64,000 bases of DNA from a virus. Taxonomy: Duplodnaviria; Heunggongvirae; Uroviricota; Caudoviricetes. The stretch lies in the IMG/VR virus record IMGVR_UViG_3300021431_000077, positions 103,062-167,061 of that record; one strand, given 5' to 3'. Under the pieces are notes generated by a model. It did not search any database, was not told the origin of the DNA, and saw only the letters and a program-made list of their open reading frames with translations. Positions within the stretch are counted from its first letter, which is position 1, and each line of letters begins with the position of its first letter. Of the stretch, positions 10,001 to 46,282 are shown one piece after another. Made by a program: the position numbers and the translations under genes.

Positions 10001-10231
10001 GATGATATCCTCGTTGTTTCAAACCTTGGTTTCGAGCGGCTGGTGCCAACCCGTGATATGAATATAGTTAATTAAAAGCAAGATGGGTAGGGGTTTGTTG
10101 TGTAAAGTTTTTGTTACAGAGAGGGTGAGCGAGTATAGGGTGGTATGCTGCCACCGGGAACGGAATCGTCGGGGTGATAACCCAAGTTGGAAATCTTTTT
10201 GGAAAAAGGGTAAAAGCCTGTAACAGGCTTA

Positions 10232-41366: not shown

Positions 41367-41495
41367 CTACTTCCCCAAACACTGGAACATAGCCGTATGA
41401 CCGAACGCCAACGGAACCAAGTCCTTGAAGCAGCCTATCGCAGTCGGCTCGTATTCGCCTTTCTCGTTCTTCAAGTAGAGCATATACTTCTTCAT
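41367..41495 (-). CDS. 42-aa micro-protein
   Basis: MKKYMLYLKNEKGEYEP...; ATGA overlap. Confidence 0.65.
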   Translation of the reverse strand: MKKYMLYLKNEKGEYEPTAIGCFKDLVPLAFGHTAMFQCLGK

Positions 41496-41605
41496 TTCGC
41501 TACCGCCTTTACCAAGTAGATTAAACCGATGATTGCATAGAGGAACCAAATAGGTGGAAACAGAACACCGAGAACCACCAATACGATGAGGACTATCAGT
41601 TTCAT
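41492..41605 (-). CDS. 37-aa membrane micro-protein (not in ORF track)
   Basis: MKLIVLIVLVVLGVLFPPIWFLYAIIGLIYLVKAVAK; ATGA overlaps at both ends. Confidence 0.7.
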   Translation of the reverse strand: MKLIVLIVLVVLGVLFPPIWFLYAIIGLIYLVKAVAK

Positions 41606-41685
41606 TTCCTGCTCCCCTTGTAAATGCGTAAGCCCATCTTTATTGCAGTGAGTTTGTCTTTCGTTGTAGGTTTCTTCTGTGCCAT
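41602..41685 (-). CDS. 27-aa basic micro-peptide, KMGLxIY family copy 1
   Basis: MAQKKPTTKDKLTAIKMGLRIYKGSRK; GAGG RBS directly after promoter. Confidence 0.8.
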   Translation of the reverse strand: MAQKKPTTKDKLTAIKMGLRIYKGSRK

Positions 41686-41867
41686 ATTATACCTCGTTGT
41701 TTGTATCTATAATATAGTTAATTAAATCTCGTTTGTCAAGGGGGACAGCGAATTTTTTATCGAAAGCCGCACGCTTCCCTCTGGGACTAGGGTGATAACC
41801 CAAGTTGAATATCGGAGGGAAAACAAAAGATTGGCGGTCTCTTTCGAAACCGCCTTGATAAAGTCCG

Positions 41868-42257
41868 TTAGGAAAATGCCACTTCAATAACCTTTTCCTT
41901 GATGACAGCCAATGCGTCAGTCAGCAGGGGCATACTGAACTCGTGCCTATCCTTGTCTATGCAGGTTATCTCGTTCGTGTAGGTATTAACCCTAACCATA
42001 TACTTCAACGGCTTTCTGCGAGGGTTCGCAACTACACCGAACATCATAGTGAACGCAAAGTCGCCATTGTGTTCTGGTATAGGTTCAAACCCTCGTGCCG
42101 TCATACGATGAAGACCGAATATCTCACGGCATAAATTCTCTTGGTCATACATATCACGAATTGTATCAGCCAACTCGTTCAACTTCGCCACAACATTATC
42201 CATAATATCTATGTTAGCAACGTTAGCGATGAACTCTTTTTGCTTTCTCTGTGCCAT
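41868..42257 (-). CDS. hypothetical protein
   Basis: Single-gene cassette. Confidence 0.8.
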   Translation of the reverse strand: MAQRKQKEFIANVANIDIMDNVVAKLNELADTIRDMYDQENLCREIFGLHRMTARGFEPIPEHNGDFAFTMMFGVVANPRRKPLKYMVRVNTYTNEITCIDKDRHEFSMPLLTDALAVIKEKVIEVAFS

Positions 42258-42467
42258 AAGTTACTCCTTTGTTTCACTTAAAATATACATAATTAAATCC
42301 GTTTTGTCAAGGATTTAATCAACTTTATTTATACCTTTTACTATGGGGTGGTATCACGCCCGCAGCTCCAGTCAGGACTAGGGTGATAACCTAAGTTGAA
42401 AAACATAAAAGAAAAAATAAAAAAGGTTTAACCCTACGGGTTAAACCCTTGTTTTTATCGGAGTTAA

Positions 42468-42890
42468 TTAAAGCTTAACCTTGAAGTGGACAAGGGACTT
42501 GTAAACAACATCTACAAGCTCGTCCTGCAAAGCCTTCGCAGCAAGCCCACGTTGCTTCTCGGTGTTGCGGTTCACCTCGGCTATGGTGGCGTTGAACCCC
42601 CCGAACATCAGACAGCGATAGCCCGTAGGCACAAGCTCCACGGGAGTGACGTTGAGGTAGTAGCTGGACGGGTAACTGTGACCGTCATAGAAACTGCGAC
42701 CCGCCTTGCGGTAGCCCACGCTCAGACGGAGGGCGTTGCAATCGTCCGACCCACTGCCCGTCTCAACCTTCTGCATAGGGAACGGGATGCTAATATCCCT
42801 GCCAAACTTGACTTCAATGCCTGCACAAAGCTCCTGCACCTTCTTATACATTTCGCTTTCAGTATCTACTTCTATACCTTTGAGAATCAT
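42468..42890 (-). CDS. hypothetical protein
   Basis: Single-gene cassette with atypical upstream element. Confidence 0.8.
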   Translation of the reverse strand: MILKGIEVDTESEMYKKVQELCAGIEVKFGRDISIPFPMQKVETGSGSDDCNALRLSVGYRKAGRSFYDGHSYPSSYYLNVTPVELVPTGYRCLMFGGFNATIAEVNRNTEKQRGLAAKALQDELVDVVYKSLVHFKVKL

Positions 42891-43061
42891 TTTACAACTC
42901 CGTTGTTTTCCCTAAGGCAACATCGCCTCGGGACACCCCTTAATATAGGGTGGTATCTCGCCCCCTGTTCAAACTGTTTCAGGGTGATAACCCAGGTTGA
43001 ACATCGGCGGGAACCAATTTAAAAGGGGACCTTTACAGGTCCCCTTCGTTCAAATCGTTTG

Positions 43062-43247
43062 CTAGACCCTTTCAATCTTGTCTTCGTCAGCATGGACGCG
43101 AACCCCGCCCCAACTTCCTTCAAGTTGCCCCAAATCGTCTATGCTTTCTATCACGCCCACCCGCCCGTTATAATGCGGTTCGCCCGCCATTTCAACAATA
43201 CGGATTTTATCACCGACTTTAAAACCTTTTGTATCGTGTTTCTGCAT
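43062..43247 (-). CDS. DUF4314 family protein
   Basis: VGDKIRIVEM..EP....GVIESIDDLGQLEGSW pattern. Confidence 0.75.
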   Translation of the reverse strand: MQKHDTKGFKVGDKIRIVEMAGEPHYNGRVGVIESIDDLGQLEGSWGGVRVHADEDKIERV

Positions 43248-43254
43248 CTTGTTT

Positions 43255-43335
43255 TTACCCGTTTTTCTTATAGATGTTAAGACCCATTTTCTTAGCGGTA
43301 ATTTTCCAAATCTGTTTTGGTTGTTTCTGTGCCAT
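43255..43335 (-). CDS. 26-aa basic micro-peptide, KMGLxIY family copy 2
   Basis: MAQKQPKQIWKITAKKMGLNIYKKNG. Confidence 0.8.
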   Translation of the reverse strand: MAQKQPKQIWKITAKKMGLNIYKKNG

Positions 43336-43552
43336 AATTTTATGCCCTTTTTAGAGTTGAGTTTTTCAGTTTAAAGTGTTCCCTAAGAAACACTACATAT
43401 AATATAGATAATTAAACACGAAAGTGTATATATTGTTTAGCATTTTCTTGTAAACTTTCGTTTACAAAAGGAAGAAAACATCGTTCTGATTCCGACAGCT
43501 TCAGCACAGTTTAGGGTGATAACCCAAGTTAAAAATCGTGGCGGGCAAAAAA

Positions 43553-43762
43553 GAAAAAGGGAGCCTTTCGGCTCCCCCTTTCTCGGAGTTGTTTTTTCTT
43601 TCTTTATTTCCTGCGGGAATAAATCTTCAATCCCATCTTGATTGCAGAAATCTTATCGGAAGTTGTAGGTTTACGAGCCATTGTTTTAATCCTCTTTTGT
43701 TTTATTGTTTGTTTTGTTTGTTAAAAGAAAAGGAAAAAGGGGAGCCTTTCGGCTCCCGATTT
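43553..43762 (-). terminator. Two near-identical terminators (gggagcctttcggctccc) flanking a micro-ORF
   Basis: Hairpins at about 43559-43577 and 43741-43758, each with an A-tract on the + strand. Confidence 0.8.
43604..43681 (-). CDS. 25-aa basic micro-peptide, KMGLxIY family copy 3
   Basis: MARKPTTSDKISAIKMGLKIYSRRK; AGAGGA RBS; between duplicated terminators. Confidence 0.8.
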   Translation of the reverse strand: MARKPTTSDKISAIKMGLKIYSRRK

Positions 43763-43763
43763 C

Positions 43764-45050
43764 CTAGAATTCAGGTTCTTCATCAATCTTGGACTTTGTG
43801 GAAGTTTTCTTTTCCATTCCGTCCAATTTTGTTGCAACCCAACGGAATTCTGCTTTGGATTCCAATTTCTCACGAATGAGAGAAGTTTTCAGAACCATAA
43901 AGAGTTCTTTTTTGGAACCCATAATCGGACTTCCGTCTGCGTGTTTCGTTCCCGTAGGATATTGTTTATCCATGTATTGTTCCAAAGAAGAAAGTTCAGC
44001 GGAAGAAATAACATTTTCATTGCAACGAGAGCGGAATCCCAAAGTTGTAGAAATTGCGTTCACTCCGATGAGAGCCTCCGAGAAATTTTTCGGAATTGCG
44101 GTTCCGTTCAAATATTCCTCACCGCTCGGAATGTCAAAGTTTTCCACCAAAGAGATGAACATCTTTGCAAGTCCGTCCGAGTCAAAGAAGTGAATTTCCA
44201 CAATTTTCTTGGCGAGCCTGTCAAAATGCTTGTTATCATAGCATCCGAACGAGAGAGCCAACATCAAATTTTCGTAGGTTCTACCGCAAGAATGATGACC
44301 GAGGGCTTCGTCGGAAAGTTTCAAATCTTTCAAATGCTTTTTAGAGAACATTTTCCAAAACATTGAAATATTCGGATTTTCATTGACCGCACGCAACACG
44401 CTTGCATCTTCGTAAATCAATTCCAACGGAAAATATCTTCCGCAAGAGCCGAGCATTGCAGGGGAAATTTCAGAAGTTTGCCCCATGAATCCCTCTCTAT
44501 CGCACCCGTTGAAAGCAATAAAGAAATTCACGTCATTATGAAGATGGAAAACTTTGACAATTTTTGTCAAAGCCACCGTCAAAAATGTTCCTTGAACCCT
44601 AGGATTTGCGGCAGAAAATTCATCCAAAAGAACGACCGCCGCATGAGCCTCGGGAAGACCTGTTTTTTCGTCCGTCCAAATGCGGTAGCCCTTAGTATCG
44701 TCGGTGGTCGGCACCTTTGCGTTCGTTGCAGGGTCTACACGATAGAACGGGAGCCAGTTCGGAATCTCGTCCTCACCCGCAAGGTCAAACGAGCCGTCCT
44801 TATTCTTATGCCCCTTGTAAGAGAAGCCGACAATTTCACTCCCGTTCACCCATTGGTTGATAGCAACCGTGATGAACGGCAACTTCCAATCCGTTGCGAG
44901 AGAGCGAACCACCGAGGTTTTACCCATGCCCGGTGCACCCTCCAAGCCGTAAGAGATGATAGTGTGCAAGATGGTCTTATCGTCCACCACCTTGCGGTTC
45001 ACGTTTGCGAGTTCCTTGAACTCCGTTGCAGTAACCTTGATTGATTCCAT
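43764..45050 (-). CDS. AAA+ ATPase (MoxR/dynein-related)
   Basis: Walker A GAPGMGKT, Walker B VVLLDEF, AFN sensor region. Confidence 0.85.
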   Translation of the reverse strand: MESIKVTATEFKELANVNRKVVDDKTILHTIISYGLEGAPGMGKTSVVRSLATDWKLPFITVAINQWVNGSEIVGFSYKGHKNKDGSFDLAGEDEIPNWLPFYRVDPATNAKVPTTDDTKGYRIWTDEKTGLPEAHAAVVLLDEFSAANPRVQGTFLTVALTKIVKVFHLHNDVNFFIAFNGCDREGFMGQTSEISPAMLGSCGRYFPLELIYEDASVLRAVNENPNISMFWKMFSKKHLKDLKLSDEALGHHSCGRTYENLMLALSFGCYDNKHFDRLAKKIVEIHFFDSDGLAKMFISLVENFDIPSGEEYLNGTAIPKNFSEALIGVNAISTTLGFRSRCNENVISSAELSSLEQYMDKQYPTGTKHADGSPIMGSKKELFMVLKTSLIREKLESKAEFRWVATKLDGMEKKTSTKSKIDEEPEF

Positions 45051-45249
45051 GTTAGTAACTCCGATTTAACCCTAAGGCTTCATTGCCTTGGGACACCCGT
45101 TAATATAGGGTGGTATCGAGGCATCGGGCCGTAGGGTGATAACCCAGGTTGAACGTGACGGGGTATATTTAGGGGGTGGCGCGTATAGGGTATTAGCCTA
45201 GGCTAATTTGATATTTGATAAGCGCGGTACTTTTTATTTTTTAAAAGAA

Positions 45250-45718: not shown

Positions 45719-46282
45719 TTAGAACGGGAGGTCATCATCCTCTGGTGGAGGAGGGGTTTGGGCCTGGGGTTGTTCCTGAGTTTGGTACATTGCGCTGATG
45801 GGGGTTTGGTAATAGGGGGGTTGAACGGGTTGTGCATCCGTCTGGAACGGGGGTTCCCCACCCGTCGGAAAAGACGGTTGCGCATCTGTCTGGAAAGACG
45901 GTTGTTCAGCCGACGGGAAAGCGGGTTCGGCAGGCTGTTGGTTAAACTGTCTATTACCGAGGAGTTGGAACGTTTCGATTACAACGTCAGTTGCGTAGCG
46001 TTTTTGGCCATTCTGGTCATTCCACGAGCGGTAGGAGAGGGTTCCTTCGATGAAGAGGGGCATGCCCTTGTGGACACCGAGGGATTCGATGACATCTGCG
46101 GTTTTTCCCCATGCGACGAGGTTATGCCAGTCGGTTTGTTCCTTCTGTTCGCCATTTGAGTCTCTGTATCTTCTTGTGGTTGCAAGGGAGAGGGTGGCAC
46201 GTTTGCGGCCCGTTTGGGTGACAGCGAATTCGGGGTCTTTGCCTGTATTTCCTATGAGGAGGACTTTGTTGAGGTAAGCCAT
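45719..46282 (-). CDS. ssb: single-stranded DNA-binding protein
   Basis: LNKVLLIGNTGKDPE...TDWHNLVAWGKTA...FIEGTL; C-terminal DDDLPF. Confidence 0.97.
   Translation of the reverse strand: MAYLNKVLLIGNTGKDPEFAVTQTGRKRATLSLATTRRYRDSNGEQKEQTDWHNLVAWGKTADVIESLGVHKGMPLFIEGTLSYRSWNDQNGQKRYATDVVIETFQLLGNRQFNQQPAEPAFPSAEQPSFQTDAQPSFPTGGEPPFQTDAQPVQPPYYQTPISAMYQTQEQPQAQTPPPPEDDDLPF

Follow-up and report, generated by a model that had tools for sequence, protein, structure and literature searches.

Comparative evidence for a family of ultra-small basic proteins in one clade of huge rumen-type phages

Are three very short open reading frames (ORFs) in a huge-phage genome fragment genuine genes, and what might their products do? 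We addressed this question in a 64,000-nucleotide (nt) stretch of the IMG/VR virus record IMGVR_UViG_3300021431_000077 (positions 103,062 to 167,061 of the record; hereafter the window), where a first-pass annotation had picked out three paralogous ORFs missing from the ORF track. All three were confirmed at its coordinates, on the minus strand and with matching translations: c1 (41602-41685; 27 amino acids (aa), net charge +8), with a GAGGT Shine–Dalgarno sequence 6 nt upstream; c2 (43255-43335; 26 aa, net charge +7), a Trp-type copy as described below; and c3 (43604-43681; 25 aa, net charge +7), a stand-alone ORF with its own Shine–Dalgarno sequence and a CA-rich leader. The three share the motif [D/W]-[K/R]-x-[T/S]-A-x-K-[M/L]-G-L-x-I-[Y/F], and scanning all 174,804 bp of the record in six frames for this motif yields no further copy. 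Family peptides span 23-28 residues with an isoelectric point of 10.5-11.2 and a net charge of +7 to +8, and end in a tail of 3-6 residues after I-[Y/F] that varies in sequence across the family and is of the S-P-R-R-K type in most c3 copies.

To judge coding status we used related loci from 3 contigs in IMG/VR, from 17 metagenome contigs, of which several bear rumen-type sample names, and from a contig of 317 kb assigned to a metagenome-assembled genome (MAG). A profile search of six-frame stop-to-stop segments of these loci recovered about 60 copies in about 20 related contigs. None is interrupted, c1 orthologs are intact in all relatives, and the frameshifts or stops that the first-pass annotation had named among its grounds for refutation do not occur. 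Each copy carries a GAGG/GGAG-type ribosome-binding site 6-9 nt 5′ of its ATG. Across 37 non-redundant members (alignment A3), M1, A14, G18, L19 and I21 are invariant and A2, K16 and Y22 nearly so, and the codons beneath them change extensively. Summed entropy at codon positions 1, 2 and 3 is 17.2, 16.3 and 33.4 bits; the invariant Gly is written as GGC, GGT, GGA and GGG in almost equal use, and the invariant Leu as TTG, CTT, TTA, CTC and CTA, switching between the TTR and CTN codon families. Nei–Gojobori counts give proportions of synonymous (pS) and non-synonymous (pN) differences of 0.8-0.9 and 0.25-0.43 between paralogs, and a non-synonymous to synonymous ratio (omega) of 0.03-0.18 for ortholog pairs; c1 of the window and its ortholog in the related contig L001 differ by 11 synonymous and 3 non-synonymous changes. 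The earlier proposal that a retained amino-acid pattern over differing codons reflects selection on the peptide is thus borne out. Comparison of these sequences shows that purifying selection acts on the peptide and that c1, c2 and c3 are genuine separate genes, previously unannotated.

The opposing view, that these are chance ORFs over a repeated DNA or RNA element, has in its favour a length below the usual gene-caller limit, a highly repetitive cassette region and an opposite strand that is open across the ORF in 23 of the 37 members. It is contradicted by third-position variation twice that of positions 1 and 2, by Leu and Gly codon switches that require several synonymous steps, by an intact reading frame and a Shine–Dalgarno sequence in all of the roughly 60 copies, and by the lack of any Rfam match in the peptide-gene region. 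Because third positions vary and the Gly and Leu codons switch, a conserved DNA or RNA element cannot be the source of the pattern; ortholog dN/dS and codon entropy effectively refute chance ORFs, a reading to which we attach almost no probability.

How widely is the family distributed? The record is a fragment of a far larger phage. Besides 37 tRNAs, it carries genes for a Cas3-like helicase-nuclease, ClpX, a Ro/TROVE protein and an NAD-dependent ligase. Related contigs measure 279-422 kb, and two of them are rated 100% complete with terminal repeats; both complete relatives (about 420 kb) hold exactly three copies clustered within about 4.5 kb, and copy number three and gene order are constant across the relatives. 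A family profile searched against 1.84 billion representative proteins returned ten matches, all rare and all from the same family, and this hidden Markov model search found no protein in which the motif forms a domain of something larger. Nine of the ten carry spurious N-terminal extensions from false upstream starts, because gene callers skip ORFs shorter than about 30 codons, and the tenth, P0004, is a stop-loss variant; the most divergent family member is P0010. In the Logan contigs P0004 and P0012, each about 1 kb long, the stop codon of a c3-type copy has been replaced, and a 102-aa ORF runs on through the terminator and array site.

Searches beyond the clade were uniformly empty. The tblastn comparison with phages proposed at the first pass found no match to the micro-proteins among the 50,697 phage records of INPHARED, and blastn of the 5.5-kb region against phages likewise matched nothing. 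PHROGs yielded no family at E ≤ 1 for five members, a Pfam profile scan none, and an NCBIfam scan of all 37 members none at E ≤ 10. Foldseek against the PDB found nothing, and an ESM Atlas feature search reached an uninformative best score of 0.82. A profile search of PDB sequences was empty apart from a 13-residue match to the matrix protein of equine infectious anaemia virus (E 0.02), which we rejected as chance. Within IMG/VR, a degenerate DNA pattern for A-x-K-M-G-L-x-I-[Y/F] recovered three already-known contigs plus chance matches, and the ATPase encoded next to c3, used as a query for more distant relatives, found only the same three contigs. Because the profile search returned the family alone and the databases were empty, we regard the family as new and limited to one phage clade: as judged by sequence comparison, the trio is a previously unannotated micro-protein family of a single clade of ~420-kb rumen-type huge phages. 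One near-complete relative (L047, JAFXNA010000004.1, 317 kb) is binned in a sheep-reticulum 'Bacteroidaceae' MAG. The TTGACA/TATATT promoters and GGAG-type ribosome-binding sites of the phage look unlike Bacteroidota signals, so this bin may not show the host.

Genomic context offers clues to what the peptides do. Between 8.3 and 45.2 kb, a 21-bp site occurs 39-40 times in the window, with a core, YCAACNTRGGTTATCACCC, kept in all relatives. A typical unit runs from the site through a promoter of highly conserved consensus (TTGACAAAnnnnATTTAATTAnnTATATT) into one to six genes, and a scan of 40.5-46.5 kb shows units closed by terminator hairpins; hairpin stems elsewhere in the array are unrelated. 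The word AACTCCGA, found upstream of some terminators, is not enriched (4 found, 2.2 expected). Gene order is the same in all relatives. At the upstream end, the gene for a single-stranded-DNA-binding protein (SSB) is followed by tandem repeats, an array site and an AAA ATPase gene of about 427 aa. Next come a terminator, c3, a second terminator, a site, c2 and a 61-aa DUF4314-like gene, and then site, 140-aa gene, site, 129-aa gene, site and c1, which is followed by genes for a 37-aa hydrophobic peptide and a 42-aa product. The three copies therefore sit in cassettes 1, 2 and 5 from the transcription-upstream end of the 39-40-site array, within an early-type region of host-promoter cassettes, consistent with the promoter-proximal and early placement first proposed for them.

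The copies carry stable signatures of their genomic slots. Residue 10 is Trp in all 11 c2-slot copies and Asp in all c1-slot copies, and the copies are old, with saturated synonymous sites. Their expression contexts differ as well: c1 has a strong host-type promoter, c2 a variant promoter with an operator-like palindrome, and c3 lies behind the ATPase terminator. The c3 slot of three lineages is occupied by a Trp-type, c2-like copy, and in L006 that copy and the genome's own c2 differ at a single residue; this suggests replacement or gene conversion, and hence partial interchangeability of the paralogs. The idea of a dosage-amplified effector accordingly stands only in part: multiple copies exist and the c3 slot has been overwritten in some genomes, but the age of the copies and their slot-specific signatures make the trio look more like three differently wired paralogs than a simple amplification.

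The c1 gene is the first of three tiny genes (27, 37 and 42 aa) that form a conserved micro-operon. Its consensus cassette promoter, TTGACA-17-TATATT (41711-41739, minus strand, 11/12 match), is conserved in 11 relatives at 24-27 nt 5′ of the ATG (25 nt for c1 of the window). The c1 stop overlaps, as ATGA, the start of a gene for a 37-aa hydrophobic, membrane-type peptide (41492-41605, minus), an arrangement predicted to couple their translation, and the 42-aa soluble micro-protein gene (41367-41495, minus) begins 2-5 nt after the membrane-peptide ORF. The 36-37-aa hydrophobic peptide gene and its strict ATGA overlap are conserved in 14 of 14 loci examined, and the codon-position entropy of the 37-aa gene is 19.2/9.3/34.6. 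The c1 tail is Gly-rich and slot-specific because the Gly codons of its K-G-G/S-R-K sequence form the Shine–Dalgarno sequence of the membrane-peptide ORF. A conserved [F/Y]-P-P motif lies mid-membrane in the 37-aa product, whose C-terminal sequence, A-I-I-G-L-I-Y, bears a loose likeness to A-I-K-M-G-L-x-I-Y of the basic peptides.

Such strict coupling within a three-gene micro-operon, together with basic flanks and a hydrophobic I/M/L/I face that could bind anionic lipid, would suit peptides that partner the 37-aa membrane peptide at the inner face of the membrane, for example in membrane depolarization, superinfection exclusion or lysis timing. We consider this quite unlikely, as neither c2 nor c3 has a membrane protein encoded next to it, the helix in the model spans only about 9 residues and is broken by the invariant Gly, and its hydrophobic moment is unremarkable. 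Nor do the basic peptides themselves contain a membrane-spanning or type I toxin-like segment: the best 11-residue window has a mean hydrophobicity of about 0 and one third of the residues are charged, whereas the neighbouring 37-aa ORF does have a hydrophobic membrane-spanning feature.

The c2 gene lies behind a weaker variant promoter, TATACA-18-TATATT (43401-43430, minus), that is conserved in relatives and followed by a 5′ untranslated region (UTR) of about 65 nt. The earlier statement that two copies are the first ORF after a cassette promoter is thereby confirmed, for c1 with a consensus promoter and for c2 with this variant. Within the c2 5′ UTR, a stem-loop (AGTGTT...AACACT, about 43375-43396, minus) is conserved in position in 10 relatives, its stem being altered in L006 and L028, and an operator-like palindrome, TGTAAA-N6-TTTACA, can be read directly at 43449-43466, upstream of the promoter. 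The 61-aa gene directly 3′ of c2 in every relative (43062-43247, minus) is DUF4314-like (PF14192, E 2.3e-5, below the curated cut-off). In its Pfam description, DUF4314 accompanies ParB and methyltransferase domains.

No recognizable promoter precedes c3, which is separated from the ATPase terminator by an unstructured, CA-rich leader of about 45 nt. As first reported, it stands alone between two copies of one terminator: the same 18-nt hairpin, GGGAGCC-GAAA-GGCTCCC, closes the ATPase gene upstream of c3 (43740-43757, minus) and recurs downstream (43559-43576, minus), where relatives show compensatory changes, and this pair is the only occurrence of the hairpin in the record. The two hairpins differ from each other in some relatives, and so their identity is not required. 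The ATPase gene (43764-45050, minus; 428 aa, AAA_5-like), first of the array, is followed by c3 in all relatives. Its product ends in a conserved acidic tail, ...E-x-E-F, with E425 and F428 invariant in 8 orthologs, which is reminiscent of the acidic D-D-D-L-P-F end of the phage SSB encoded nearby (45719-46282). It is conceivable that the ATPase tail serves as a docking site for a basic peptide.

Could the ORFs instead be cis-acting leader or arrest peptides, in which the nascent chain is selected and translation tunes downstream genes (the membrane peptide, the DUF4314-like protein) or read-through of the c3 terminator? Both c1 and c2 are first ORFs behind promoters, c1 shares its stop with the next start and carries the next Shine–Dalgarno sequence in its tail, c3 is followed by a terminator and then by a unit with only a weak promoter, and arrest peptides are likewise conserved at the amino-acid level. 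Against this, RNAalifold predicts only −1.6 kcal/mol and no covariation across 9 c1 units, and recovers from 10 c3 units the terminator hairpin alone, so that neither c1 nor c3 shows conserved alternative pairing or covariation other than the terminator itself. The tail from motif to stop varies between 3 and 6 residues, regulatory codon runs are absent, and a single motif would need to work in three downstream settings that are unrelated to one another. A 5′ leader position, true of c1 and c2, does not describe c3, a terminal ORF with no gene between it and its terminator, whose stop lies 20-25 nt before the hairpin, a distance at which a terminating ribosome would not cover it. Because conserved alternative RNA structure is lacking and the motif-to-stop distance varies, a leader role is unlikely, and the regulatory leader peptide suggested at the first pass is not upheld.

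We consider it probable, though well short of certain, that the trio encodes trans-acting polycationic phage micro-proteins rather than cis leader peptides. A trans role is favoured by conserved pairings of neighbours: c1 with the membrane peptide and 42-aa ORF, c2 with the DUF4314-like gene, and the ATPase with c3. We modelled the peptide with AlphaFold2 on the family alignment, using a 34-residue stop-to-stop read whose 7 N-terminal residues are non-native. The model places a helix at peptide residues 8-16 followed by a non-helical segment, with a predicted local distance difference test score of about 90 over the conserved core. Residues A14, G18 and L19 would fit a Gly-capped helix end with the next hydrophobic residue packing back, and I-K-M-G-L-x-I alternates as an amphipathic strand would. 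The peptide may thus begin with a floppy basic N-terminal arm that leads into a helix of two turns (residues 8-16) with the invariant Gly18 as its cap, and continue through an extended, hydrophobic L-x-I-[Y/F] stretch to a basic tail. Because it is so small and so charged, it would fold only on a partner, its small hydrophobic knob docking into a groove and its Lys/Arg arms gripping a polyanionic surface. RNA or DNA would be the first candidate for that surface, and otherwise an acidic protein tail or a membrane surface. Nucleic acid is our first guess because of the charge and composition, the S-P-R-R-K tails of c3 and the DNA-metabolism neighbours, namely the SSB, AAA ATPase and DUF4314-like genes. 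Such peptides might serve in host takeover or regulation, with production beginning as infection starts and supply maintained through three different expression routes.

Several points weigh against this picture. A confident model of so tiny a peptide may be over-read, particularly from a query with 7 non-native residues, and the helical hydrophobic moment does not exceed that of shuffled sequences. The preference for nucleic acid over a protein or membrane target draws on charge and composition only. The operon leader position of c1 and c2, and the ATGA coupling of c1, could still allow a cis effect on downstream translation. Translation is predicted from sequence comparison, and any target or phenotype is putative.

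If the trans-acting peptides do bind nucleic acid, their target could lie in the array itself, where they would bind the 21-bp site or the hairpins and set read-through or recombination along the 38 cassettes. The genes stand at the upstream end of the array, site and peptides are both conserved clade-wide, the arms are strongly basic with the S-P-R-R-K type tail in most c3 copies, and c3 is bracketed by hairpins with GNRA loops. Yet 25 residues is very small for sequence-specific binding, similarity to families of DNA- or RNA-binding motifs is absent, the c3-flanking hairpins differ in some genomes and terminators elsewhere in the array have unrelated stems, and we hold such a role to be highly improbable. 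There is a slim chance that the peptides are a new class of free-standing polycationic RNA-binding micro-proteins that tune termination or translation across the ~38 cassettes, or retarget host ribosomes; each 25-residue peptide would then do on its own what the arginine-rich arm does in lambda N. If this were true, the three paralogs would supply RNA-binding activity at different times of infection.

Among known systems, the amino-terminal arms of lambda N and P22 N are arginine-rich-motif RNA-binding peptides. They share with the trio a basic stretch of about 20-25 residues, one aromatic residue and, as proposed for the trio, folding only on a nucleic-acid partner, and for c3 the likeness extends to the adjoining GNRA-type loops. 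By contrast, the trio is Lys-rich and free-standing, has no NusA- or RNA polymerase-binding extension and shows no sequence similarity to either arm; its members are candidate binders. Small early or host-takeover proteins of phages have in common with the trio very small size, an early-type gene setting and presumed binding to macromolecules, but the trio is far more basic, occurs as three conserved paralogs per genome and has no link to them through PHROGs. The Stp peptide of phage T4, at 26 residues, is nearest in size. The h-x-x-A-x-K-h-G-L sequence and extended segment resemble the first helix and linker of SAP, HeH and Rho N-terminal modules, although those have two helices in about 35 residues and the trio ends where the second helix would begin; no SAP, HeH or Rho_N profile matched in Pfam or PDB sequences. 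A SAP/HeH-like origin by way of L007, an unrelated viral contig that matched the pattern by chance, was rejected, since Pfam finds no SAP/HeH match there. Small ribosomal proteins (bL33, bL34, bL36, bTHX and bS21) are similar in size, charge and Met-Ala-Lys start, but none of these families matched in Pfam, or in NCBIfam at E ≤ 10. Known leader peptides, too, are unconnected to the trio by sequence or profile. Features of ribosomally synthesized and post-translationally modified peptides (RiPPs) or of secreted signals are likewise missing from the trio, which has no Cys and no hydrophobic N terminus; relative to a RiPP layout, the conserved part is central and C-terminal, and the neighbours are the ATPase gene, the DUF4314-like gene and micro-ORFs.

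The array has features of its own. A second promoter-like word, GATACCACCCTATATTAA, occurs at 45100-45117, 42940-42957, 42338-42355 (degenerate) and 10132-10144. The two units without a TTGACA promoter, those of the ATPase gene and the 140-aa gene, both have this word upstream, followed by a conserved 5′ UTR hairpin (CCCnAGGC...GCCTTAGGG). The word is also present close to the opposite end of the array, and may represent a different promoter class or a timing mark. In the complete 422-kb relative L006, positions 2308-2735 contain five array sites spaced about 100 nt apart without intervening genes, and these 'empty' junctions fit gain and loss of units at array sites. As small insulated units with a host-type promoter and a terminator, the cassettes resemble the PeSL-type promoter/stem-loop cassettes of T4-type phages, reportedly described by Arbiol et al. 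in 2010; the likeness is to the array and not to the peptides, and the conserved 21-bp junction site is an additional feature here.

What does the family mean for the biology of these phages? Millions of phage small genes have unknown function (PMC11323111), and with so many such genes predicted, one more family of small proteins from an uncultivated phage is, on its own, not very surprising (PMC11323111). Proteins of fewer than 30 residues are nevertheless too short for gene callers and hardly ever receive an annotation, and the comparative evidence here is unusually clean. Because synonymous change is saturated over an invariant core in every member of the clade, the trio provides good test cases for ultra-small proteins in huge phages, helped by a position at the head of a large cassette array and by the coupling of c1 to a membrane peptide.

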